NCBI RefSeq assembly: GCF_054482525.1
Contig: NZ_CM137006.1
DNA: 64,000 nt
Direction: 5' to 3' (one strand)
Part shown: positions 19,530 through 48,765 of the stretch, in pieces
How the letters are laid out: every line of letters begins with the position of its first letter
How positions within the stretch are numbered: position 1 is the first letter of the stretch
Notes under the pieces: model-generated
What the model saw: only the letters and a program-made list of their open reading frames with translations
Database searches by the model: none
What the model was told of the DNA's origin: nothing
Translations under genes and position numbers: made by a program

Positions 19530-20744
19530 TTACCCACCCGGAGCGGCATTTTCCTTTAGCGAGTGATGCCACGTTTCTTTGCGGCTGCGTAAGCCGATAA
19601 ACAGTGCCAGTAAAAAGCCGATGGCAGCGATGGCGGTATCGAACCACATAATATCGGCAATACTTCTTTGGGACAGATGAGCCGTAATCAACGGAATAGT
19701 AAAGGTCGCAATACTGCCCGCACTGTAATAGATCCCTGTAGCTTTACCTTTAGCGTAGGGGAAACGTTCAGCCATTAATGTCAGGCCAATTTGCACAACA
19801 CCTCCAGCAGAGGTAAAACCAATGACAAAAGCAAATATTATCACCACATAAAATGTGGGATGCAGACAGACGGTAAACAGAGCAATAAATGAGATAAAGG
19901 TGTACAGCATCAGTAATGTTGTTGGGCGAACGGTATTACGAATGAGTGGAGCGGTGATAAATACACAAAGCAGCGAACCCACGGTGTAGATACTGAGTAG
20001 TTTGATCGACATAGTGTATGACATGCCTGCAACAAATTGTCCGTACTGTGCCAGCCACTGGCTAACCAGATAAAAGGTTGCCATTGAGATATAGCCATAT
20101 AAGGTATAACTGGCTAAATCGATTATTGAGCAGCGATGTTCCGTAGAGCTGGTGGTTTTCTCTATGACAGGTAAGCGACGACCCGGATGGGGTGGGAACG
20201 TACAACGGTATAAAAACAGAGCGTTAATAAACATAATGCCTGCGGCAATCATAAAGGACCAGCCGAACCACAGTTCAGCCCACACTAACAGGCTGATGAT
20301 TAGCGGTAATAAAAATTGCCCGCTGGAAACAAATGCTTTAATTAAAATATTGGCTGTACCCGGTGAGCGTGGAAAAGCTTCCATCAAACTGGGATAGGTG
20401 CCTGCATCGAGAAAACTGTTTGCCATTCCCGCCAGAAAGCCCAAACCATAAGCGATAATGATGTTATTGGTGTGCAGGATGCCAAAAAAGAAGGCCATAT
20501 AGCAGCACATCCCGAGCATGATAAAAGGGCGGCGACCAAAGCGATCGGATAATAATCCTGCAAAAAGCAAGACACTTAATCGACCAATACCCAGCGATGA
20601 GATAACTATTGAGACGCCTGCGGCATTAGTCTGCCAAAGCGTCTCCAGCGAGGCCATATTCAGGCTCATCAAAATGACGCCCATACCATGCACCAGGTAA
20701 TTAAAATACAACCCAAGTGCGGTAGGGAAATAGGGATTTTTCAT
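19530..20744 (-). CDS. ydiM: MFS transporter YdiM, 404 aa
   Basis: 404-aa hydrophobic multi-TM ORF; synteny. Confidence 0.85.
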   Translation of the reverse strand: MKNPYFPTALGLYFNYLVHGMGVILMSLNMASLETLWQTNAAGVSIVISSLGIGRLSVLLFAGLLSDRFGRRPFIMLGMCCYMAFFFGILHTNNIIIAYGLGFLAGMANSFLDAGTYPSLMEAFPRSPGTANILIKAFVSSGQFLLPLIISLLVWAELWFGWSFMIAAGIMFINALFLYRCTFPPHPGRRLPVIEKTTSSTEHRCSIIDLASYTLYGYISMATFYLVSQWLAQYGQFVAGMSYTMSIKLLSIYTVGSLLCVFITAPLIRNTVRPTTLLMLYTFISFIALFTVCLHPTFYVVIIFAFVIGFTSAGGVVQIGLTLMAERFPYAKGKATGIYYSAGSIATFTIPLITAHLSQRSIADIMWFDTAIAAIGFLLALFIGLRSRKETWHHSLKENAAPGG

Positions 20745-20843
20745 AGGTTCTACTTAGCAAAGGTGCTTTAAAAAGTGAAGCGATGTTGTATCAGCATCCG
20801 TTCATTATTGTTGTAACAACGACAATTCCTTTCTGTGGGAAAA

Positions 20844-21200
20844 TTAACAAAGGCGCTCCAGATCGTGTGCATATAATTCAGCGGCTACCGATTGATAGAT
20901 CTTCCAGTCAATAAAATTGCCATCAGGGTAGACACGTTGAAACGCGGTTAAGTCGGGGAAAAAACGCATGGTGTTGTTGCCGATGCGGTTATTTATTTTC
21001 TCTATGATGGCATGAAGATGTTTTTTTCGTTGCTGTCGCATAGCCAACAGTTGCTCGACCACACGATCAGGAATGGCGCATTTGCCATTTTCCCACTGAC
21101 GCCAGCTTTCATTGTCACCGGTCTGGGCAATCCAGGTCGCGCATTCATCAATAGTCATAGCAAAAATATGGCGAAGAGCCTGGAGTTCATAAGCGTTCAT
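20844..21200 (-). CDS. ydiL: Uncharacterised protein YdiL, 118 aa
   Basis: Internal start MNAYELQALRHIF gives 118 aa; this is the gene next to rprA in K-12. Confidence 0.8.
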   Translation of the reverse strand: MNAYELQALRHIFAMTIDECATWIAQTGDNESWRQWENGKCAIPDRVVEQLLAMRQQRKKHLHAIIEKINNRIGNNTMRFFPDLTAFQRVYPDGNFIDWKIYQSVAAELYAHDLERLC

Positions 21201-21337
21201 CGTGTAATGGCTGCATGAAATAAACAATAAAATATAAATAACATTATCAGCCTGCCGACGGCTTGAAGAGAGTCACAGTATCTTGTGCAACATTATTGGA
21301 AAGCGTGAGGGGCGAGGTAGCGAAGCGGAAAAATGTT

Positions 21338-21407
21338 AAAAAAAAGCCCATCGTGGGAGATGGGCAAAGACTACACACAGCAATTCGTTGTTTCACTCAG
21401 GGGATTT
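21338..21407. repeat. Left attachment-site direct repeat (duplicate of the rprA 3' end and terminator, 70 bp)
   Basis: Identical to 32979-33048: aaaaaaaagcccatcgtgggagatgggcaaagactacacacagcaattcgttgtttcactcaggggattt. Confidence 0.9.
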
Positions 21408-21424
21408 AAGTCATTGATTGATTT

Positions 21425-22054
21425 ATGGGTATGCGGTTTTTCGGCATAAACCAAATTAAGCAAGGCTTGAAAATGGACACACAAATTGCACACATATCGC
21501 ACACAAATAAAAAGGGGTATGTATGGCGCAAGCGTTATGAAAAACGCACGATTGAAATCATCCTACGCACCCGTGATAAATCAATTGCCATAAAAAGAGC
21601 GGCATCAATAACAATTCGCTATATGGAATTAAAATCACTTGACGTTCCATTTAAAGCAATGCTGGAAATGTTAAAAAAGTTTCGTGATGGTCTGATTACG
21701 TCACATGACATTGAGCGCTTAAGGTCGATTGCGATAGCTTCACAGGAAGCTCCACACGCCGCTGTAACCGCTTCGCCTATACAAAGTGTTGGCTATGATG
21801 TCAAAACCGCTCAGAAAGCCGCACAGGGGCATTCCCTTGGCGATGCTCAAAAAGTGTACTTTGGCGCCAACACCGAATGGAAAGAAAAAACCATCAAGGC
21901 TTATTCTGGTTGTATCGACCGCTTTATTTTATGGTGCGCTAATAAAAATATTCATACCGTGGAAGAAATAACGAAAGAGCATGTGATTTCATTTAAATCC
22001 AGCATGGATGAAGAAAAATTAGCCTCCATGACTAAATTTCGCATAATAATATGA
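21425..22054 (+). pseudogene. Tyrosine-integrase-like N-terminal fragment (core-binding/SAM-like region only, catalytic domain missing)
   Basis: 209-aa ORF; the segment KTIKAYSGCIDRFILWCANKNIHTVEEITKEHVISF resembles an integrase core-binding domain; no R..HxxR..Y catalytic region follows; sits next to the att repeat. Confidence 0.4.
21477..21509. repeat. Three tandem ~11-bp repeats (acacacaaatt / gcacacatatc / gcacacaaata), candidate integrase arm-type sites, left end
   Basis: Direct tandem repeats ~70 bp inside the left att repeat; a matching triplet lies ~70 bp inside the right repeat. Confidence 0.5.
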
Positions 22055-22362
22055 TTCGGGTTAGCATAACCAATACTTTTATTAAAGCCTATGTATGCAC
22101 CAATTTCTTTATACTTTAACTTAGTGAAATCTGAAATAATACTCAGTGGCTGCAATACGTTATGTCCATTGTGCGCCCCTTCATTAGCGCAAAATCCTGT
22201 ATTTGCAAACTGACCTTTATCACGCCAGATGAATCTATCAACGCCGCCACATACAGGACATGGTGTATGTTCATTTGGTTTAATATCAATTCCAAAATCA
22301 TTCATATGCACCAATGGATTCTTTTTAATATAATTATTCAAATCAGTAAAGAAATTAGCCAT
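21952..22362 (-). pseudogene. DNA primase zinc-ribbon domain fragment (Toprim and downstream domains absent)
   Basis: Motif HTPCPVCGGVDRFIWRD typical of primase Zn-ribbons; ORF stops soon after; its 3' end overlaps the convergent integrase fragment. Confidence 0.45.
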
Positions 22363-22681
22363 TATATTTGCTCCCGTATCGCCTTGCTGGATGCTTTGCA
22401 AAGAAATCAACGATATCTTGTTTGCGATACCAGATATAACCGTCTAATTCATGATGAATTTCTTGCGGAAATTCTTTAGGGTTAAAGCGTTTGGCGGCAT
22501 AAAACATTGGTTTAGTAACACCAGATAAAGCAATTGCATCATTGCCACACACAAGCCCTGTAAGTTGCACTTTCTGCGATTGTTCTTTTATCTGTGCCGC
22601 GATTAGCCTTTTATTCTCATTAACGTATTTTTCAATCTGTAGCTTACGCATTTTTTCGCGCATGTAATTTATATCGGTCAT
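22355..22681 (-). CDS. AlpA/Xis-like small DNA-binding protein, 108 aa
   Basis: C-terminal region FYAAKRFNPKEFPQE...YIWYRKQDIVDFF resembles the AlpA-family FPK...W..R..DI..W pattern. Confidence 0.45.
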   Translation of the reverse strand: MTDINYMREKMRKLQIEKYVNENKRLIAAQIKEQSQKVQLTGLVCGNDAIALSGVTKPMFYAAKRFNPKEFPQEIHHELDGYIWYRKQDIVDFFAKHPARRYGSKYNG

Positions 22682-22697
22682 TTTAGTATCCTATATA

Positions 22698-24200
22698 TTA
22701 AGTCATTATCTGTGCTGGTGGGGTAATGATATGAATTATCCCTCGATTATTCATAATGAATCTACATCGTTCAAGCCCTGTAATTGCTCGCTTTATATTA
22801 TTTGGCTGCATTTTATACTCAGTTTTTAATGCCTTCGTTAAATCGGATTCATGTACACAGCCATCAGCACTAAATTCCATTAACTGTATTATCATTTCTA
22901 AAACTCGTTCTTGTGCTGGTGCATTTTTCTTTTTTAACTCGCTCATATATGAGTCGTAAGCGAGAGTATTATTACGCGCAGCATTTTGAGTAAAATTAAC
23001 TCCTGCTTCATATGATTCTGCATTTACAGCGTTTTGCATTAATTGCTTATTTTGCTGTTGCGTTGTTAGTGGTTGCCGCTGTTGCGTGTGCATTTGCGCA
23101 TAATCATTTATCGGTGATTGCTGCATGATAAATGGTTCATCATTAGCTTGTTTGCGTTCTATTTTTCCTGCTGCAATTACTGGAGTTGGCCTATCAATAA
23201 ATACCAACGTCTTAGTATTGGCGTTTACCTGATAACCTTTTGCATTTTCTTCGGGATAATCGCATAATTCATTATTAATATCATGTAATTCACAGACGGT
23301 AATTCCGTTATCCGCTGTGCATAAATCAAATTGCATCACTGGTAATTTTGCAGCGCTACGGTTTTTTTCGATAGTGAGTGATACGGATAACCCAAAATCA
23401 TTACCCTGCATTTGCTCTAGTTTAATGACTGTATCAGAGTCATTTTTAAGGGTAATGGCTCCTTTCATACCTTTAGCCGCATCTTTGCCGCCGTGGTGAA
23501 CCATCAAGACAAAAGAATTTGTTTCTACTGCAATTCTTTTCAAAATCGAAATCAGCTTACGCATTGCAATAGCATCATTTTCATCAGGATTTTCCATATC
23601 CAAAATGGTTTTTCCATCAATGCTTTTTTTTGTGTAGTATGCCAAAAATGAAGAAAGCGTATCAAAACAAATGATGCCGCCTTTGTTATTGGTGATTTTA
23701 TTTACATCATTTATTATTCGATTCTGTATTTCTTTATCAAATAAGTTTATTTGTGGTGACAAGATGTGCATTCTGTCATTTTTAACGCCACTATTAAACT
23801 TATTAGACCACGCTGTATTTCGATCTTTGATTTCAACGCCTGTTTCACCATCAAAATAAAAAGCATGGCATTCTTTAGCAACTCGCAAACCAGCCCACGG
23901 TTTACCCTGTGCAACTCTGTTTAAAAGAGATAATGCCGCAAATGATTTGCCTGTGTTGGATTCACCATAAAGGAAGCCGACCTGTTTTCGGTTAAATAGA
24001 TTTTCAATTACAGGGCGTAACCGCTTTTCTGATTGCAATTGAATTTCAGCTAATTCAATTGCACACAATTCATCATTTATACCATCATATTCAGACCACT
24101 CACCGTAGTTGGCGGGTGCGTAATAATCAATCGCGAGAGTGTAATAATAATCAGGAATAGCAGACCAATCAATAAACATTCCTGTGCACATATCATTCAC
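22698..24200 (-). CDS. RecA-like (RepA/AAA_25-type) replication ATPase, 500 aa
   Basis: Walker A GESNTGKS near residue 80; hydrophobic strand plus HHGGKD Walker-B-like region; Q/N-rich linker and C-terminal domain; flanked by AlpA-like genes and iterons. Confidence 0.55.
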   Translation of the reverse strand: MNDMCTGMFIDWSAIPDYYYTLAIDYYAPANYGEWSEYDGINDELCAIELAEIQLQSEKRLRPVIENLFNRKQVGFLYGESNTGKSFAALSLLNRVAQGKPWAGLRVAKECHAFYFDGETGVEIKDRNTAWSNKFNSGVKNDRMHILSPQINLFDKEIQNRIINDVNKITNNKGGIICFDTLSSFLAYYTKKSIDGKTILDMENPDENDAIAMRKLISILKRIAVETNSFVLMVHHGGKDAAKGMKGAITLKNDSDTVIKLEQMQGNDFGLSVSLTIEKNRSAAKLPVMQFDLCTADNGITVCELHDINNELCDYPEENAKGYQVNANTKTLVFIDRPTPVIAAGKIERKQANDEPFIMQQSPINDYAQMHTQQRQPLTTQQQNKQLMQNAVNAESYEAGVNFTQNAARNNTLAYDSYMSELKKKNAPAQERVLEMIIQLMEFSADGCVHESDLTKALKTEYKMQPNNIKRAITGLERCRFIMNNRGIIHIITPPAQIMT

Positions 24201-24247
24201 CGTAATTTGGGTATTTAATTAAGAAAAATTCAATTACTTCTTCTTTT

Positions 24248-24400
24248 TTATATAGATGCTTTGTTTTTTTTGTTTTTATCGCAAGTAACTAAATGCTCTT
24301 TTGGAAATTCTTTAGGGTTAAAACGTTTAGCCATATAAAAAGCGGTTGAGCCAATTTTAGCCAAAAGTTGTGCTTCACGAGGTGTAATTAAGTCGCTCAT
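24248..24400 (-). pseudogene. Second AlpA-like fragment (50 codons), partial duplicate of the 22355-22681 gene
   Basis: Translation MSDLITPREAQLLAKIGSTAFYMAKRFNPKEFPKEH... shares the FY-AKRFNPKEFP motif with the downstream AlpA-like gene; weak RBS; not in the ORF track (<60 aa). Confidence 0.3.
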
Positions 24401-24750
24401 GTAGGGTATCTCTTAGATGTATTCTGAGTGCGGTCATGGTAGGCGAGGGGAGGAATAGCGGCAAGCATTACCGGATATAGTAAGCACTACCAGCTAAAGT
24501 CTAACTAACTGTCAACAGATTGAGGCTAAAACCACTGTATGTAAATTCAATTTTAAAAATTAAAAATCATTCTGGCTTAACTAATTATGCTCAATTTAAA
24601 TTGAATCTGATAATAAAAAGAATCAATAAAATGGATTTAGTGATTTTTAGTTGGACGAAATCGTTCATTTTATGTGCATTGCTCGCTGGTGATAATTCAA
24701 CCAATCCATTCAACCTATTCGAATGGGTGGTGAATTTTTGACCGAATTAA

Positions 24751-24920
24751 ATTCACCTGAATATTCACCGAATGATTCACCTGAATCATTCAGCCCTTCA
24801 TTCACCACGAAACCCAGGCGCGGCGGGGCTTACAGGCCGATTCATTCACCTGAATATTCACCTGAATATTCACCTGAATTATTCAACCAAAAATTCACCT
24901 TCATATTCACTCATTCACCT
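24751..24920. repeat. Iteron array: two clusters of three 12-bp tandem repeats (ATTCACCTGAAT) plus degenerate copies
   Basis: Units at 24751, 24763, 24775 and at 24844, 24856, 24868 with further TTCACC copies; lies upstream of the Rep ATPase operon. Confidence 0.6.
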
Positions 24921-24957
24921 CTCTATAAATAAGCATTGGAATGCTTTTTATAGAGGT
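24921..24957. other. Long near-perfect inverted repeat (ctctataaataagcatt gg aatgctttttatagag), hairpin or operator
   Basis: About 16-bp arms with a 2-nt loop, T-run on one side; lies between the iterons and the ner-like gene. Confidence 0.4.
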
Positions 24958-25236
24958 TGATGAATGAAGGTCGTTCAAGTGAATGAACTGTGAGTTGGGT
25001 AAACCCCTAGGGGTTGGGGGTGTTGTCGATTTGTGGTAAATTCCTTCTGCCAGCGTGAAAAAGGCGCTGGTGGGGATTTGCAGCCCCAAACAAACAAAAC
25101 CATTGGCAAGGAATTGCCGATGCGCGTGCGCACGTCAGTTATGGCGGTCACGGCGAGGGAGTCGAAAGGCTCGCCAGTTTTGTTTGTTTGCTGGTACTGC
25201 AAACCTCGTCGTGATCGTCACCACGGGGATGCATGT

Positions 25237-25488
25237 ATGCAGGAAACAGACTGGCACAAAGCGGATATTCTTGCCTCTTTAAAGAAAAAGAAAATCAGCA
25301 TGGCGGGATTATCCCGTGAACATGGTTTATCAAGTAGCACGTTGCTAAATGCACTTAGTAGAGAATGGCCTAGAGGCGAATTAATTATTGCTAATGCAAT
25401 TGGTGTGTCACCTCAAGAAATATGGCCTTCTAGGTATTTTGAAAAAGATGGCTCTCCAAAAAATCGTGTGATTCGTAAACCTGTTTAA
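25237..25488 (+). CDS. Ner/Nlp (SfsB)-family HTH DNA-binding regulator, ~83 aa
   Basis: MQETDWHKADILASLKKKKISMAGLSREHGLSSSTLLNALSREWPRGELIIANAIGVSPQEIWPSRY closely resembles Ner/Nlp; I prefer the internal ATG at 25237 over the 151-aa ORF start. Confidence 0.6.
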   Translation: MQETDWHKADILASLKKKKISMAGLSREHGLSSSTLLNALSREWPRGELIIANAIGVSPQEIWPSRYFEKDGSPKNRVIRKPV

Positions 25489-25705
25489 ATAAGTCAATGC
25501 GTCTCTGATTAAAAGGGGCGCATTTTTGTTTTTACTGACTTGTTGCAATGTGGGATATGTTGCGCACGTGTGTGCGATAGTTGTTAATTGTTTTTTGTAC
25601 TAGTTAACAAATACGAATTTTCTGAGGGTGCTATTTTGGGTTTTAGCTGCGGCTTCGCCTTGCTGCCCTTCGGGCTGGTGGTGCAAGAAGAATGTTTGAA
25701 AACTT

Positions 25706-25751
25706 CCTTTTCTTTGCTTCACCAGCCCCGTAGGGGCGTGAGCGTAGCGAA
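25706..25751. repeat. 46-bp direct repeat, copy 1 (ccttttctttgcttcaccagccccgtaggggcgtgagcgtagcgaa)
   Basis: Identical to 29912-29957; contains a gcccc-gta-ggggc hairpin; ~100 bp upstream of the 383-aa gene. Confidence 0.85.
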
Positions 25752-25849
25752 CCTAATCACTTTGATTTTGACACATATCGGTTCTATCATTTTCAGGAAA
25801 ATCATCATAGAATTATATAAAACATACGATTTTTAAGGTGAATTTTTAA

Positions 25850-27001
25850 ATGCACGAGAAAGCGCAAACAAAAATAAAAGATACTATTAGAGAAATACTA
25901 ATCACTCCAGCAATCGCTTTTACTGGTCGTGCAGGTCATTTTGATTTTTCATTATATGAAGTTTTAGCAAATGAGCTTAACAAAAGAAAGATAAAGTTTA
26001 AAATTGATAAATTATCATGTTGGATTATTTTTGATGGCGCAAAAAAACATTACTTTCAAGATAAATCAATTACTGACGCACAAGCGATAAATGATTTTGT
26101 GGATACGTTATGTAGTATTTACTGTGAAACACCTATGGATTACTCCATCGATTTTCACTTTAGAAATTTAAAAATCGATATCAACCCGATTGATTATGAG
26201 TTTGTTTCAATTAGAGCGGGTGAGGATATTGGTATTGGTTTGTTCGCTGAAAAAGAAAAGTATGCGATTGCGAGCATTAAAAAGAATGGCTATCTTTCAG
26301 GTGGTTATCCTAGCTCATTTATAAAATCGATTTTGCAAGATTTGAAAATCTTCATTTTTTTGATTAAAAGCATTAATTTGATTAAGACAGGAAAAACCAA
26401 TTTAGCATCCACGTTATTTCAATCGATGTCCGGTCATGCTGACACAATTAAGATTGATTGCGTTAATGTTAAATATCCTTGGATGAATAGCAGTGTCCAT
26501 ATTTCAGAGTCGGTAGGGAAATTTTTACACAACTTTATCTTCAATTATGAATTTGAAGAAGGCTACATTATAGAAAAAATAGATCATTCGCTTCAGCTAA
26601 TGAATGCAATAGTAAAAGATGAGTCAAAAGAAGCCTTGCGTATCAAGGCTGCAATTGATTGGTTGGTGCAATCTGAAATCACTGATGATGAAACCATGTC
26701 TTTTATTCAAATTTGCATGGGGCTTGAATCAATTTTTGGTGATGATGATTATGAGGGTGGCCTAACAAACATACTATCTGATAGATGCGCCTACTTAATA
26801 GGGAATAAAATTAAAGAGAGGAGATTTATAAAGGACACATTTAAAAAAATATATCAAGTTAGGTCAAAGATAGTGCATGGCGTAAGAAATCATTTATCAG
26901 ATGATGAATTATATTTTAGGCATTTAGCATATTCATATTTAGAGCGTTCTATTCTAAAAGAAATTCAAAATTTAGACCTGCAATCCCATCAGGCGACGTG
27001 A
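25850..27001 (+). CDS. Hypothetical protein with C-terminal HEPN-like R-x4-H-G motif, 383 aa
   Basis: AGGTGA RBS 8 nt upstream; C-terminal ...KKIYQVRSKIVHGVRNH matches the R-x4-6-H signature of HEPN RNases; strongly AT-rich. Confidence 0.4.
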   Translation: MHEKAQTKIKDTIREILITPAIAFTGRAGHFDFSLYEVLANELNKRKIKFKIDKLSCWIIFDGAKKHYFQDKSITDAQAINDFVDTLCSIYCETPMDYSIDFHFRNLKIDINPIDYEFVSIRAGEDIGIGLFAEKEKYAIASIKKNGYLSGGYPSSFIKSILQDLKIFIFLIKSINLIKTGKTNLASTLFQSMSGHADTIKIDCVNVKYPWMNSSVHISESVGKFLHNFIFNYEFEEGYIIEKIDHSLQLMNAIVKDESKEALRIKAAIDWLVQSEITDDETMSFIQICMGLESIFGDDDYEGGLTNILSDRCAYLIGNKIKERRFIKDTFKKIYQVRSKIVHGVRNHLSDDELYFRHLAYSYLERSILKEIQNLDLQSHQAT

Positions 27002-27236
27002 AGCTTGTGCGCTTCATTATGGGGCTAGCCGCCATCAGGCAAGGCGATTGCATGTCTTTGCGCTTCGTCGCCTCCTGATGCGTTCTGTGAAGATGTCGAT
27101 CATTTAGTGAGCGCGGCGGATGTTGCTGATGGATAGTGTGGATGCAACTGAACCATACCGCGAAAAGTGGCAGGATTGCGCCGGAATCGTACCGCTAGCA
27201 GGTGTTGAGTGTAAGAAGTAGTGATTGGGTGAAATG

Positions 27237-27275
27237 AAGATAGAAGGCCGCATAGAGGCATACAACTAGCCTTAT
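27237..27275 (-). terminator. Hairpin downstream of the lipoprotein gene (candidate terminator)
   Basis: ccgcata...tatgcgg stem followed, on the minus strand, by a T-rich tract. Confidence 0.35.
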
Positions 27276-27288
27276 GCGGTTGGCTGGT

Positions 27289-27732
27289 TCAGCACTGGTA
27301 AAAGTTGGCGAGGTGTGGAATATGGCTGGTGGTGGTTTCGAAAGCCTTGAGGCGTCCATTTTTATCTTTTTTCAAGTAGAGCATTTTTAGTGCTGGTGGA
27401 AATACTGAATCCATAATTCCATAAACTCCCACATTTTCGTTTTCTTCTTTAAGCATTCCCCAATATTGATAACCATTTAATGCGCTATCATCAATGCCCG
27501 TTCCAACGCGCTTAATGTGGGCAAGATATCGGCCTTTTATCGTAAAGCTAAATGATTCATCACGTTCATTTGTGCAAGTGTAAAATCCATCATCGCTTTC
27601 ATTTATAACTTCAGATGCTTCACGATTTAATGAGTACTTGTCTAAGTTGTTTATGATGTCACTTCGCTGTGCGCATCCAGTCAAATTTAGAATGGTAAAA
27701 ATTAGTACAGAAGATGCAAGATATTTGTTCAT
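27289..27732 (-). CDS. Predicted lipoprotein, ~147 aa
   Basis: N-terminus MNKYLASSVLIFTILNLTGC carries a signal peptide with lipobox LTGC; internal ATG at 27732 preferred. Confidence 0.55.
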   Translation of the reverse strand: MNKYLASSVLIFTILNLTGCAQRSDIINNLDKYSLNREASEVINESDDGFYTCTNERDESFSFTIKGRYLAHIKRVGTGIDDSALNGYQYWGMLKEENENVGVYGIMDSVFPPALKMLYLKKDKNGRLKAFETTTSHIPHLANFYQC

Positions 27733-27818
27733 TTTGATTATCCATATGAAAAGCAAGGTACTTAGATTAAATTACCCTGCTTAAGCAGTAATTAGCGGTT
27801 CCGTTAATAGAGGGTAGA

Positions 27819-28178
27819 TTATTTGTTAATTTGTTTTTTAGTGTGTGAGATAAAATTTCTAAGTAAATCTTTTTCAATTACAATTTCACATTTTAGGTTT
27901 TGGCTATCGACCGCATCAATTCTATCAAACCAAAACATTAATTCCTGGCTTGCATCGCATTTACGTTTGAATTTAATTGCCCTGCCGAATTTTTCACTTA
28001 AAGAATCATCATCACATAAAAAATAAATTTTATTATTAATGGTGATTTGAATTAAATATGTCTTCCTCGTTAGGTAATCTAACCTTTCGTTAGCTTTCAG
28101 TAAGTTAGCTTCAGCTTGTTTGATGCGTATAAGAGCATCCTCTTTGCTTAAAGGGGATGTATTGACAGACTTGATCAT
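27819..28178 (-). CDS. Hypothetical protein, 119 aa, upstream partner of the lipoprotein
   Basis: AAGGA RBS 8 nt upstream of the ATG; co-oriented with the lipoprotein gene, 86-bp gap. Confidence 0.5.
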   Translation of the reverse strand: MIKSVNTSPLSKEDALIRIKQAEANLLKANERLDYLTRKTYLIQITINNKIYFLCDDDSLSEKFGRAIKFKRKCDASQELMFWFDRIDAVDSQNLKCEIVIEKDLLRNFISHTKKQINK

Positions 28179-28287
28179 AATTTAATCCTTTGGTTAAGAT
28201 TCATCAAAAATATGCCATAAATAGCCTTGAAGGTTGTGTGGAATACATATTATGATAGCTTCATCTAATCAGCAAGGGGAATAATAG

Positions 28288-28443
28288 ATGCCTTCTAAAC
28301 GTGTTATATGCTCACTTGATGAGCAAGAGTTAGATATTCTCGAAAAATATAAATTACATTATAAAAATATGCATGGCGTAAAATTAAACAGAACGGCAAT
28401 TATCAAAATGTTGATTAGTCGTCTATCAAAAGAAATTCAATAA
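28288..28443 (+). CDS. Ribbon-helix-helix (Arc/CopG-like) small DNA-binding protein, 51 aa
   Basis: MPSKRVICSLDEQELDILEKYKLHYKNMHGVKLNRTAIIKMLISRLSKEIQ shows a beta-strand/helix/helix pattern; GGGGA RBS; divergent from the 27819-28178 operon; below ORF-track length cutoff. Confidence 0.45.
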   Translation: MPSKRVICSLDEQELDILEKYKLHYKNMHGVKLNRTAIIKMLISRLSKEIQ

Positions 28444-28495
28444 TAATTCTAATTACCAATTAATTTAAACTTCACATAATTAAAGAGGCAACTCT

Positions 28496-28810
28496 ATGCA
28501 CACTCTTTTTTCTAAATTTAAAAACAGGAAAATTAAAATGTATCAACCACGTTATAAAAGCAGAATGATTGACGATAATGAATATAATCAGGTGCTTCAA
28601 TCGAGAATGCAAAATCTTTTAAATCAATATAATAATGAGGTTTCAAACTTAACCCGCATTGGTGTTACAAATTTGGGTTTCGGCCGATGGGATAATGGAG
28701 AGAGCAAAATCAATAACCACGTTAATAAAGTAAGTGAGACTTTGGAAAAGATGCAATCTACGCAAGCCTTGATTGATGCTCTTGCAAATGAAATTACACA
28801 AACTAATTAA
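28496..28810 (+). CDS. Hypothetical protein, 104 aa
   Basis: AAGAGG RBS 8 nt upstream; no recognisable motif. Confidence 0.45.
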   Translation: MHTLFSKFKNRKIKMYQPRYKSRMIDDNEYNQVLQSRMQNLLNQYNNEVSNLTRIGVTNLGFGRWDNGESKINNHVNKVSETLEKMQSTQALIDALANEITQTN

Positions 28811-28894
28811 TCGAATGGGGGATGCTTTAAATGGTAATCGCAATCATGGTTGTAATGTTTTGGGCTTTCCTGATTCTTAAAGAGGAAATGAAAT

Positions 28895-29179
28895 ATGGTT
28901 AAATTTGGAGTGTTTTACCATCATGCATGGGGTGATGGTAAAAAGGAAATCCCGCCACCTGATTTAAATTACATCCGAACCGATCCACATAAAAATAATG
29001 AAATTGCTTTAGATGTTTTTGATTCAAGAATGGACGCACAAAAACGCGCTGATTTACTAAATTCACGCATGGCAAAAAATCAAACTGGTCAGCATTATGT
29101 TGCGCCAACAACGCAAGAAACCAAAACGGCTCAAAAGCGCTTTAAGTTTCCTTGTACTAGCATTTATGGGTGGAAATGA
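28895..29179 (+). CDS. Hypothetical protein, 94 aa (paralog family A)
   Basis: AGAGGA RBS; N-terminus MVKFGVFYHHAWGDG is similar to the next gene's N-terminus. Confidence 0.45.
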   Translation: MVKFGVFYHHAWGDGKKEIPPPDLNYIRTDPHKNNEIALDVFDSRMDAQKRADLLNSRMAKNQTGQHYVAPTTQETKTAQKRFKFPCTSIYGWK

Positions 29180-29181
29180 AA

Positions 29182-29556
29182 ATGAGTAAACAATTCGGTG
29201 TTTTCTTTTGGCGAAAAGGTGACGCTATTACCGATATCCCGTCAGATAAAAATGTTGCAAATCGCGGAGTAAAGCCTAAGCGCATTTTTTCAGATTATAT
29301 TGATGGAATGCGATATAAAGATAAAATGAATGCAACAATTCCAGCGGCGCAAAAAGGTAAATATGAATATGTATTAGCGGAAATTGTTGAACCAGACCCG
29401 AACAATACAAAGGTGTTGTTTAAATCTGGAAATTTAACAGAAGCATTAAGGGCGAAGCGACAAACAACCGAACAAATCAACCGAAATAAAATTGATGCAA
29501 TGATTAAAGAAGCCGCACACGATTACCTTTACACTATTACAGGAATGGAAAAATGA
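29182..29556 (+). CDS. Hypothetical protein, ~124 aa (paralog family A)
   Basis: N-terminus MSKQFGVFFWRKGDA parallels the upstream gene; GGTGGA RBS; start at 29182 preferred over 29170. Confidence 0.45.
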   Translation: MSKQFGVFFWRKGDAITDIPSDKNVANRGVKPKRIFSDYIDGMRYKDKMNATIPAAQKGKYEYVLAEIVEPDPNNTKVLFKSGNLTEALRAKRQTTEQINRNKIDAMIKEAAHDYLYTITGMEK

Positions 29557-29852
29557 TTATTGACGAGCGATTTATTAAATGGTCAATGGTGCTGGTGGAG
29601 GCCGGAAAGCCATCACCCAGCCTCGCGGGGCTTTATAAAGGAAACACTAAAGGATTAATCTTTTATAAAACACGTGAATTGGCATCAAATGCAGCCACTA
29701 AACGGAATGAGCAATTAGCAGGAACTAAATCAACCAGCCGATTTAAAATCATTAAATTGCATGACGCAGAAGCACAACAGAAACATGATTTTCAGTTAAA
29801 ACAGGAACGCCAGCGCCGCGATGCACGCCATATGCGCCGATTTGGTTTCTAA
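29553..29852 (+). CDS. Hypothetical basic protein, 99 aa
   Basis: 4-bp ATGA overlap with the upstream gene suggests translational coupling; Lys/Arg-rich C-terminus. Confidence 0.4.
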   Translation: MIIDERFIKWSMVLVEAGKPSPSLAGLYKGNTKGLIFYKTRELASNAATKRNEQLAGTKSTSRFKIIKLHDAEAQQKHDFQLKQERQRRDARHMRRFGF

Positions 29853-29911
29853 ATATAACTCAATAACTCAACCAATGGTGATGTTAAAGAATAAGGTGGC
29901 CTTAAATTTCA

Positions 29912-29957
29912 CCTTTTCTTTGCTTCACCAGCCCCGTAGGGGCGTGAGCGTAGCGAA
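29912..29957. repeat. 46-bp direct repeat, copy 2
   Basis: Identical to 25706-25751; 37 bp upstream of the tape-measure-like gene. Confidence 0.85.
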
Positions 29958-29993
29958 ATAAGTAACATTAATATCAAATCAGAGGTAAATAAA

Positions 29994-31982
29994 ATGGCAG
30001 GTGAAAATGCTCAATTGGGCTTTTCCGTCGATACATCGGAAGTGGAAACAGCATCAAAAAGGCTTAATGAATTAGCTAAATCAGCGCAAGGGGCGGCTGA
30101 TTCGGCTGGCAAATTATCAGATTCATTTGAGGAAAGTATGAAGGGTGTTAATTCATCAATTACTTCCAATCATCAGGCTATGCGCGAATTAACGGTAATG
30201 ATGCACGAAGCAATGTCTGGTAATTGGTCGCGCTTGCGTGGTTCTGCAATGATTATGGGCGGCGCATTGGGATTTGGTGGATTAACTAGCGGTGCGGTAG
30301 TTGGTGGAATTACGCTTGTTTCGGAAGGCATTGAATCGCTAATTGAAGGAATGCGAGAAGCTCAAAAAGCAGAAACTGAATTAAATAATTCTGCTGTAAT
30401 TACAGCAGATGTAAGCCTTTTAAATAGTGATTATGTTGATTCACTTACTATTGGTTATGAGAAATTAGGCTATTCAGCAACACAAGCAAAAGGCATGATT
30501 GCAGCGTTAAGTAATGCGGGTATGTTTGGTGATGAATTTAGTGTTGCAGGTAAACAAATTGCCGCACTATCTAAAGCGTTAGGCGGTAATTCAGACGAAC
30601 AAAAAAAATTAGCTGGTCAATTTGGTGGCTTGTATTCTGACCCGCTAGGACACGTTAACGAATTTTTCCAAGTAACAAACGGATGGATTACCAAAACCGA
30701 ACAAAACCGAATTAATGCGGCTGAACAATCGCATAATTCAGCACAAGCTGAAATGGCTATGCAAGAAGCGCTATTAGATGTTTATAAGCGTCAAACCGAT
30801 ATGCTACAGCTTAAAGCCTATTTGGAAACTAACGCCGCTACATATTCAGCCTTTCAGACGCGCGAACAATTCGGCAGCGCATGGGGTAAGGGCGAAAAAG
30901 AAAAGGCAGACGCATTTATCAAGCAATATGACGAGCGCCAGCAATCATTTAATCAGGGCGTTGAAAAGCTAAAAGGAAGCATTCACGAAACAGGACGCCA
31001 GATAAGGGAAAATGTAGAAGAATTTAATAAAGGAATGCATCCCCATAAAGTGCATACACACCACGGATTAACAGCAATTGAGAAAGCAGCTAAACAATTG
31101 GTGACCTACCAAACCCAAATTAAACAGGCTGGTTTGCAATTTGACCAGCAAATTAATTCAATTGGTGATTCAGTAAATAATGCGTGGAGTAATAAATTAT
31201 ACTCTTATTCAATGTCTTCTGACCAGAATGATTTTGCAAACCGAATTGAACAAATCAATGAACAATTCGACCGTATGCGCGAAAATGTAGACCGTTTGGC
31301 GCTGCAACATCATAAATCAATTGGTTCAAAAGAATATGTTGAAATGTTCCAAAAAATCGAATTAGGGCGCAAAAACGTATTGGCTGAAAACGTTGCTGGA
31401 TTTAATGAAATGGAGTCATTGCAGCATTCAGCGCTGGCGGGAATGGATGAGGGATGGATTAAATACCAGAAGCAGGTTAATGATGTTGCAAGCCAATCAG
31501 AGAAAGTTTTTGATACGGCTGTTGAGGGAATGACAAATTCATTAACTGATTTCTTTACAACTGGTGAGGCTGGTTGGACTAATTTTGTAAAATCAATCGC
31601 AACAATCACTGAAAAATACATGGTTCAAGATTGGATTGTTGAGCCGCTAGCAGGATTAGTAAAAGGGGGGATTAGCTCGCTATTTTCATCAAATCCATTG
31701 AGTTCAACGGCTAACACTTTTGCCGTTCCCGATATTCCAAAATTGGGCGCAACTCATTTAGGAGGCGGTCTAGGTTCGACCGCACCAGTTATCAATATCA
31801 CCATTAATGACAATGGCAACAAAGGCGGCGTTGATAGCAATGTTAGCGGCACAACAGGGCAAGTACAAAAAATGGGGGCGGCGCTAGATAAATTCCTGCA
31901 AAACTATATCAAAGAGCAAAACGTAAAATCCAACCGTCAGGGCGGGTTAAACAAAACAATGGGGAACTGGTCGACAAGATAA
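29994..31982 (+). CDS. Phage tail tape-measure protein homolog (lambda gpH-like), 662 aa, orphan
   Basis: Glycine-rich hydrophobic segment MIMGGALGFGGLTSGAVVGGITLV near the N-terminus, long helical middle, C-terminal FDTAVEGMTNSLTDFFTTGEAGWTNFVKSI and ...VINITINDNG matching, from memory, the lambda H C-terminal region; AGAGGT RBS. Confidence 0.6.
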   Translation: MAGENAQLGFSVDTSEVETASKRLNELAKSAQGAADSAGKLSDSFEESMKGVNSSITSNHQAMRELTVMMHEAMSGNWSRLRGSAMIMGGALGFGGLTSGAVVGGITLVSEGIESLIEGMREAQKAETELNNSAVITADVSLLNSDYVDSLTIGYEKLGYSATQAKGMIAALSNAGMFGDEFSVAGKQIAALSKALGGNSDEQKKLAGQFGGLYSDPLGHVNEFFQVTNGWITKTEQNRINAAEQSHNSAQAEMAMQEALLDVYKRQTDMLQLKAYLETNAATYSAFQTREQFGSAWGKGEKEKADAFIKQYDERQQSFNQGVEKLKGSIHETGRQIRENVEEFNKGMHPHKVHTHHGLTAIEKAAKQLVTYQTQIKQAGLQFDQQINSIGDSVNNAWSNKLYSYSMSSDQNDFANRIEQINEQFDRMRENVDRLALQHHKSIGSKEYVEMFQKIELGRKNVLAENVAGFNEMESLQHSALAGMDEGWIKYQKQVNDVASQSEKVFDTAVEGMTNSLTDFFTTGEAGWTNFVKSIATITEKYMVQDWIVEPLAGLVKGGISSLFSSNPLSSTANTFAVPDIPKLGATHLGGGLGSTAPVINITINDNGNKGGVDSNVSGTTGQVQKMGAALDKFLQNYIKEQNVKSNRQGGLNKTMGNWSTR

Positions 31983-32043
31983 TATTATGTTGCTTAGTAA
32001 GTCTAAACTTTACGCCCTAATTAGGGCGTTTTATTTAAAAAAG

Positions 32044-38522: not shown

Positions 38523-38747
38523 TCCTGACTTAATGCCGCAATTTCGCCAAATCGACCTGGATTAACCTCCGTCCAGGTTCGATGACCTTCTTAATACTGC
38601 TTATCTACCCGCCTGATATTGTTCAAAAATAATACTAATCGCAGTTTGTGTTAAAACGGCGGGTTAGCTTTATGAGATTATTCTTATCGCCCCTTCAAGA
38701 GCTAAGCCACTGAGAGTGCCGGAGATAAGCGCCGGATGGGGTAGAAA

Positions 38748-38788
38748 CCCTTAAGCCTGTGTCGCACAGACTTAAGGGTTTTCTTATT
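38748..38788 (+). terminator. Rho-independent terminator-like hairpin in the ydiH-sufA intergenic region
   Basis: cccttaagcctgtg...cacagacttaaggg stem followed by ttttcttattt. Confidence 0.5.
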
Positions 38789-38874
38789 TCTGAACGCTGC
38801 ACTTTTTTACCTATCTCTTAAATAGTCATTTTCAATACAACTTTTTCTTTTTCATCACAGCCTTAATGCTCCTT

Positions 38875-38890
38875 AGATAATAATCATTAT
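38875..38890. promoter_or_regulatory. Fur-box-like sequence in the suf promoter region (distal)
   Basis: gataataatcattatc resembles the Fur consensus GATAATGATAATCATTATC. Confidence 0.5.
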
Positions 38891-39010
38891 CTAACAATGA
38901 GATACCTAATTCTTAGCGTGCCTGTTAACCCACACATCAGGGTCTATGCTTATTAAAAGCAGGAAAAAAGCATGTTTTACGGTAAAGCCCCTGCGTTTGC
39001 TGGGTTGAAC

Positions 39011-39025
39011 TGATAATCATTATCA
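39011..39025. promoter_or_regulatory. Fur box in the sufA promoter (proximal)
   Basis: tgataatcattatca is a near-perfect Fur palindrome ~50 bp upstream of sufA; the suf operon is known to be Fur-repressed. Confidence 0.6.
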
Positions 39026-39070
39026 CTAACATGCTGTTATACGCTGAAAGCGATGAAGTGAGGTAAATCG

Positions 39071-39439
39071 ATGGACATGCATTCAGGAACCTTTAATCCA
39101 CAGGATTTTGCCTGGCAGGGCTTAACGCTGACACCCGCAGCCGCTGTCCACATCCGCGAGCTGGTGGCAAAGCAGCCGGGTATGGTCGGCGTGCGCTTAG
39201 GCGTGAAGCAAACGGGCTGCGCGGGCTTTGGCTATGTGCTCGACAGTGTTAGCGAGCCGGACAAAGACGATCTGCTGTTTGAACACGACGGCGCGAAGCT
39301 GTTTGTCCCGCTGCAAGCGATGCCGTTTATTGATGGCACGGAAGTCGATTTCGTTCGTGAAGGACTTAATCAGATATTTAAATTTCACAACCCTAAAGCC
39401 CAGAATGAATGTGGCTGTGGCGAAAGCTTTGGGGTATAG
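39071..39439 (+). CDS. sufA: Fe-S cluster assembly A-type carrier SufA, 122 aa
   Basis: 122-aa ORF with C-terminal CGCGESF motif. Confidence 0.93.
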
Positions 39440-48525: not shown

Positions 48526-48765
48526 CCATTCAGGATGAGGCGGTAAGCTTCATCCTGATATTCTTGCTTCAGTTGCGCTCCAGTTAATCACTCTAAATAA
48601 CAACTGCTGAAATTATACGAATTTCGGTATGTATTTTAATTTATAGCGATAATGTTATTTTTATTTTCTGCAATGAACGTCACAAATAATTGTCGCTTAA
48701 GTTAAATTTATTTCAAATGATAATAAATATCAGTTCACTTATAATTTCTTGCTTTGTGATTTTAA

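Follow-up and report, generated by a model that had tools for sequence, protein, structure and literature searches.

The control region upstream of sufA in Escherichia coli raises the question of how many Fur operators it holds. A first-pass annotation of the window, the whole 64,000-nt stretch of DNA that was analysed, had flagged two Fur-box-like palindromes there, and had proposed that the one nearer to the gene mediates Fur repression of sufABCDSE while the farther one, if functional, might relate to a divergent ydiH/small RNA side. We consider it probable that the proximal box is the known Fur operator, that the distal box is the 5' arm of an IHF site rather than a selected Fur operator, and that the two stand in an ordinary suf control region. 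For the binding and the roles of Fur, IscR, IHF, and OxyR we draw on the literature; the positions, scores, conservation, polymorphism, and orientation of the sequence elements are results of the present analysis.

The window comes from E. coli: a 701-bp segment spanning the two boxes is 100% identical to strain PCN033 and was found in 5,421 of 5,426 complete E. coli genomes. The strain is not a K-12 strain, and its proximal box is the same as that of K-12. The gene order on the plus strand is ydiJ, menI, ydiH, rydB, a hairpin with a U-tract, a control region of ~280 bp, and sufA, and the K-12 annotation likewise has menI, ydiH, rydB, and sufA on one strand. The small RNA gene rydB (38689-38749, plus strand; Rfam RF00118, 81.6 bits, E = 3.6e-19) is co-directional with sufA (39071-39439, plus strand), a coding sequence of 122 aa in the list of open reading frames that is annotated as sufA in E. 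coli genomes. Between ydiH/rydB and the suf control region sits a terminator-like hairpin followed by UUUUCUUAUUU (38744-38790, plus strand), which folds at -22 kcal/mol (z = -5.7 versus shuffles); it went unflagged by a simple terminator scan, probably owing to one internal mismatch in its stem. A promoter scan returned no minus-strand promoter-like site near the distal box. Since ydiH, rydB, and sufA lie on the same strand with the terminator hairpin between them, there is no divergent transcription unit here. The region is an ordinary one, the well-studied stretch from which sufABCDSE of E. coli is controlled.

Both of the Fur-box-like strings are real. The proximal box, TGATAATCATTATCA, lies at 39011-39025, where it had first been placed; it ends 46 nt before the sufA ATG (39071) and has its dyad at -53, in agreement with the earlier estimate of ~50 bp upstream of the gene. 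The distal box, GATAATAATCATTATC, occupies 38876-38891; the 38875-38890 originally given is one base too far left. The word palindrome suits the proximal box, which is a perfect 7-1-7 repeat, better than the distal one, which in the Fur register (dyad 38885, 19-mer 38876-38894) is imperfect (TAATAAT-C-ATTATCT) and which as a string consists of inverted arms separated by 4 bp (GATAAT-AATC-ATTATC). The boxes have the 12-mer ATAATCATTATC in common, one copy in each, and it occurs nowhere else in the 64 kb; when up to 1 mismatch is tolerated, there are 6 matches versus 0.39 expected. The likeness of the boxes runs past this 12-mer, such that 38880-38897 aligns with 39013-39031 over ATAATCATTAT--CTAACA with 17 matches and one 2-bp gap (shuffle p about 0.0015).

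Matches were gauged against both consensus sequences and a scoring matrix. The proximal box is the sole 14/14 match in the window to the 7-1-7 consensus TGATAATnATTATCA, and the distal box matches at 12/14 positions of this consensus and at 14/19 positions of the 19-mer. When the local 216 bp upstream were shuffled with dinucleotides preserved, the match of the distal box was equalled in 0.2% (7-1-7) to 0.7% (19-mer) of cases (p about 0.002-0.007). Both boxes exceed chance. A symmetric Fur matrix of 19 columns was built from 13 K-12 sites flagged as footprinted or gel-shifted by Chen et al. 2007, leaving out sufA and aligning the sites on the 7-1-7 dyad; the classical 19-mer register (GATAATGATAATCATTATC) was tried and set aside as being out of line with the site coordinates of Chen et al. 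Scores from our matrix and from Chen et al. 2007 were, in bits, 25.0 and 25.2 for ryhB, 27.8 and 27.4 for gpmA, 19.6 and 19.5 for fhuA, and 21.4 and 21.3 for sufA, and the 13 training sites scored 17.9-27.8 bits when each was left out in turn. The proximal box, at 21.4 bits, ranks 1 of the 64,000 positions, and the distal box, at 14.4 bits, ranks 5 in the window. Depending on the allele carried at one polymorphic base, the distal box scores 14.4 (T), 12.1 (C), or 8.9 (G) bits, whereas all 13 training sites reach at least 17.9; the floor that Chen et al. 2007 give for proven Fur sites is 10.1 bits. The resemblance of both boxes to Fur sites is real.

Other Fur-like sequences occur in the window. 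The site AATGATAATAAATATCAGT at 48716-48734 (dyad 48725) scores 20.8 bits and matches 13/14 of the 7-1-7 consensus; it falls in the interval between ydhY and fumD (ydhZ), 256 bp upstream of the former, where Chen et al. 2007 have their "ydhY -255" cluster. The 3' end of aroH holds a cluster of overlapping sites at 2207-2246 (17.2, 15.8, 10.0, and 9.6 bits), some 190 bp upstream of the minus-strand gene hemP (ydiE); this is probably the ydiE cluster of Chen et al., who give -35 from the gene start, and the annotation of that start may differ. Coordinate offsets suggest that the window also carries ~11.6 kb of DNA that is additional relative to K-12, between ydiE and sufA (about 20000-32000). 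At least part of this extra DNA (e.g., 27200-29700) consists of short hypothetical genes in an A/T-rich run, and the region contains several chance Fur-like matches (28025-28451).

The proximal box could be set precisely within the suf promoter. In the Fur-site-defective P(sufA) of the Kiley laboratory, -26 ATA -24 was changed to TAT; as the sole ATA in the box is at 39013-39015, the sufABCDSE transcription start (+1) falls at 39039 on the plus strand, leaving a leader of 32 nt. From this +1, the -35 hexamer would be TTGAAC (39005-39010, plus strand), which is near-invariant across genera, and the -10 hexamer TAACAT (39027-39032, plus strand), which is invariant. The box (dyad 39018, 19-mer 39009-27) overlaps the core promoter, filling the 16-bp spacer between the two hexamers exactly, and abuts the conserved IscR region. 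The information-theory scan of K-12 by Chen et al. 2007 found one sufA Fur cluster, of 21.3 bits at -53 from the gene start, a position that is the dyad of the proximal box. Fur ChIP-seq and the Fur regulon include sufABCDSE, and reviews speak of one Fur box only, in competition with apo-IscR at ORE-III. The claim that the proximal box is the Fur operator of sufABCDSE is upheld by its place in the promoter spacer, its conservation, the -26 ATA -24 bases, and its coincidence with the only sufA Fur cluster of Chen et al. 2007. The proximal box is the established, already-known suf Fur operator. Because it occupies the promoter spacer and abuts the IscR site, iron-loaded Fur on it would block RNA polymerase and apo-IscR alike, and the suf promoter would become free once iron limitation or oxidative stress caused Fur to leave the site.

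Conservation of the proximal box is strong at every level surveyed. Of 80 Enterobacteriaceae species, 79 have a box of at least 12/14 about 60 bp before the ATG; on the Fur matrix the median across species is 22.9 bits, and the columns of the -35 hexamer, the box, and the -10 hexamer carry about 1.9 of 2 bits each. Among the 5,426 E. coli genomes, at least 5,359 (at least 98.8%) have the identical box, as counted with 30-mers, since searches with 57-mers were confounded by flanking SNPs. The only common variant near the box is in the -35 hexamer, at position 39008 (TTGAAC in 4,770 and TTGTAC in 589 of the 5,426 genomes); TTGTAC, which might alter basal promoter strength, is also found in E. 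albertii and Escherichia sp. MOD1-EC7003. The sole species without a box at about -60, Intestinirhabdus alba (L056), has a very strong one, AGTGATAATAATTATCATT (26.4 bits), ~151 bp upstream of the sufA start matched by tblastn and hence ~100 bp beyond the usual place; this species has either a longer leader or a true start codon upstream of the matched region.

The distal box, at -163 to -148 from the transcription start, does not overlap the suf promoter, and the hexamer pair found locally is at chance level. Outside Escherichia it is not conserved: across 75 other species, the homologous position scores a median of -1.0 bits. The possibility of site turnover, in which other genera would hold a secondary Fur site elsewhere, was also considered and rejected; in the interval 40-230 bp upstream in these 75 non-Escherichia species the median best score was 5.4 bits, six species reached 10 bits (one of the six, in I. 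alba, being an anchoring artefact), and no more than about 11% did better than shuffles at p <= 0.05. Within the genus, the box scores 14.4 bits in the window and in MOD1-EC7003, 12.1 in the K-12 type and in E1V33, 10.7 in E. whittamii, 9.9 in E. albertii, and 8.9 in E. coli with the G allele. The allelic base is position 38884, a core base of the distal dyad; of the 5,426 E. coli genomes, 2,118 (39%) have T and 3,267 (60%) have C there, G being rare. K-12 has the weaker C form, GATAATAACCATTATC, of 12.1 bits, and all published mapping of the suf promoter was done in K-12; comparisons of the distal box with K-12 therefore need care, because the K-12 base differs inside the box itself.

The two halves of the distal box have different histories. 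The right half, CATTATC, is ancestral and belongs to an IHF-site flank that is conserved throughout Enterobacteriaceae, and the left half, GATAATAA, is specific to Escherichia and, at about 0.5 bits per column, no more informative than spacer DNA; the TAATAAT left half is also present in the strong sites at ryhB and fhuA. Judged from these conservation data and the polymorphism, the distal box does not appear to be under constraint as a Fur site. An origin by local duplication of the core promoter was rejected in favour of point substitutions, as the shared segment is only the one described above and the distal TAACAAT has its homologue in TATCAAT, the ancestral IHF core. The substitutions of the Escherichia lineage in the ancestral CATTATTTATCAATG brought this stretch nearer to the proximal Fur/-10 segment and further from the IHF core.

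The remainder of the control region is taken up by the elements for other regulators. Three of them, ORE-I, ORE-II, and ORE-III, are said to have been placed by Lee et al. in 2004 at -236 to -197, -156 to -126, and -56 to -35, respectively. With +1 at 39039 these ranges would fall at 38803-38842, 38883-38913, and 38983-39004, and they coincide with conserved blocks in our upstream alignment, which we take to be the same elements. ORE-I presumably corresponds to the OxyR-type block that begins with CCTATCTCTTAAATAGTCATTTTCAATACA (38809-38845, plus strand) and is conserved across genera in the alignment and in the phylogenetic footprint. The segment AAAGCCCCTGCGTTTGCTGGGTTGAA at 38984-39009 (plus strand), which is conserved and abuts the Fur box, is presumably ORE-III, and we take it to match the IscR type-2 consensus. 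At the centre of ORE-II lies the putative IHF core TAACAATGAGATA (38892-38904, plus strand), which matches 7/9 of the specified positions of WATCAANNNNTTR. In IHF-DNA complexes, the 5' arm of the core is DNA wrapped by IHF over roughly 20 bp. The 20 nt 5' of this core (38872-38891) are 80% A+T in the window, and a conserved AAAT..CATTATY stands here in other genera; the putative IHF binding site (ORE-II) as a whole spans 38872-38906, with an A/T-rich 5' arm and a 7/9 core. In most of the 75 non-Escherichia species, a core of the WATCAANNNNTTR type, matching at 8-9/9, occurs at the homologous position, at a constant distance of 119 bp upstream from the proximal box, with the conserved CATTATY directly before it; the position homologous to the distal box is immediately 5'. 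According to reviews, ORE-I binds OxyR, ORE-II binds IHF, and ORE-III binds IscR and Fur, the binding of apo-IscR and Fur at ORE-III being mutually exclusive, and IHF bends the DNA to bring the far-upstream OxyR to the suf promoter.

Some further features of this region were observed. A strongly conserved block, GGGTCTATGCTTATTAAAAG (38938-38958, -101 to -81), contains invariant columns in the alignment and has a mean of 1.27 bits per column over 74 non-Escherichia species, which is above that of the IHF core; the suf literature that we found assigns no factor to it. An inverted repeat, AAAAGCATGTT / AACATGCTGTT, at 38966-38976 and 39028-39038 (11 nt, 91% complementary, 51 nt apart), flanks the IscR/Fur region; its right arm spans -10 to +1, and its left arm, AAAAGCATGTT, is poorly conserved outside Escherichia. 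Inside the OxyR-type block, a match of 10.6 bits to the Fur matrix (TTAAATAGTCATTTTCAAT, 38818-38836, dyad 38827) is probably an A/T-rich coincidence, the conservation of which is explained by OxyR.

Taken with its position, the history of the distal box suggests that it is most likely an IHF arm in function rather than a Fur site. The box would be the A/T-rich 5' arm of the IHF site with core 38892-38904; IHF would bend the DNA here such that OxyR at about 38809-38845 could contact RNA polymerase, and the left half GATAATAA, having arisen only in Escherichia, would by chance have completed a moderate Fur-like dyad to which Fur is predicted not to bind. Several observations count against this assignment: the Escherichia IHF core is more degenerate (7/9) than that of other genera while Fur-likeness is higher, the Fur match of the distal box exceeds both what composition predicts and the floor of proven sites, its TAATAAT half recurs at ryhB and fhuA, and promoters with two Fur sites, such as fhuF, exist. 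In a rival account the distal box is an auxiliary Fur site of lower affinity, where iron-loaded Fur would compete with IHF and veto OxyR activation at high iron, with a strength tuned by the natural T/C/G polymorphism at 38884. We judge this account unlikely. Its scores with T (14.4 bits) and C (12.1 bits) exceed the 10.1-bit floor of proven sites, but the core base is polymorphic, the weaker C allele is the majority, and the G allele takes the score down to 8.9 bits. The match is better than composition alone predicts (p 0.002-0.007) and includes the TAATAATCATT core common to the ryhB and fhuA operators, yet the box is not conserved outside Escherichia. Although the box lies wholly within the expected IHF 5' arm and the further 10.6-bit match lies inside the OxyR block at 38827, a second site goes unmentioned in the suf reviews that we found, and published work counts the triple substitution in the proximal box as removing the Fur site. 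The dual footprints of high and low affinity at fhuF (Chen et al. 2007) set a precedent for such an arrangement; against this, the literature reports that a regulatory effect is absent for most Fur sites predicted from sequence or detected by ChIP. Fur-Fur looping between the boxes was rejected, as the two dyads are 133 bp apart, or 12.7 turns, and thus out of phase, a spacing that also speaks against an auxiliary site. We accordingly see only a slim chance that Fur binds the distal box weakly in competition with IHF. It is likewise improbable that the IHF 5' arm of suf in Escherichia has evolved into a moderate Fur site, from which iron-loaded Fur could dislodge IHF and so veto OxyR activation without recourse to the operator in the core promoter; were this true, the veto would differ by strain, with O157:H7 and PCN033 on one side and K-12 on the other.

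Two other accounts of the distal box have less in their favour. It could be the operator of a second, Fur-repressed suf promoter farther upstream, for which the promoter scan offers a pair at 38854-38881 (-35 ATCACA, 16-bp spacer, -10 GATAAT) with its -10 hexamer inside the box. This is very improbable, given that the scan gave 2 promoter-like sites versus 1.4 expected by chance, that the hexamers match at 9/12 positions and are found in Escherichia only, and that a second start site goes unmentioned in the literature that we found. That the box controls a divergent ydiH/rydB unit, along the lines suggested in the first-pass annotation and with proximity to rydB as its sole basis, we regard as scarcely credible and do not retain: rydB and ydiH are upstream of the box on the same strand as sufA, the terminator hairpin stands between rydB and the box, and the minus strand near the box lacks a promoter-like site in the scan.

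The proximal site represents textbook regulation of a stress-responsive Fe-S assembly operon, and as a finding it matters little. What the analysis adds is chiefly a correction, namely that annotations should neither list the second "Fur box" as a Fur operator nor tie it to ydiH/rydB, its sequence probably belonging to the IHF/OxyR activation module. It also draws attention to the ~40% of E. coli genomes that differ from K-12 at a distal base that changes the predicted affinity for Fur. The conserved block at -101 to -81 is a minor point that may be of use to those working on the suf promoter.

The proximal box has its nearest known counterpart in the Fur operator of E. coli P(sufA), reportedly the subject of work by Patzer and Hantke in 1999, Outten et al. 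in 2004, Lee et al. in 2008, and Mettert and Kiley in 2014. The box shares with that operator the locus, the position (-28 to -14), the overlap with the promoter, and the overlap with the IscR site, and there is no material difference in score (21.4 bits here, 21.3 bits published). The pair of boxes is like fhuF (Chen et al. 2007) in combining a strong promoter-proximal site with a weaker Fur-like site upstream, and unlike it in that both regions were footprinted at fhuF, whereas the distal site of suf is known here from sequence, lies 133 bp away, and is not conserved. The distal box also resembles ORE-II, the IHF site in the suf promoter reportedly described by Lee et al. in 2004: it abuts the IHF core, within the roughly 20-bp 5' arm, and its right half, CATTATC, matches the CATTATY flank of ORE-II in other genera. 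From the ORE-II of those genera it differs in its left half, GATAATAA, which is specific to the Escherichia lineage, and in the adjoining IHF core, which matches at 7/9 positions versus 8-9/9.
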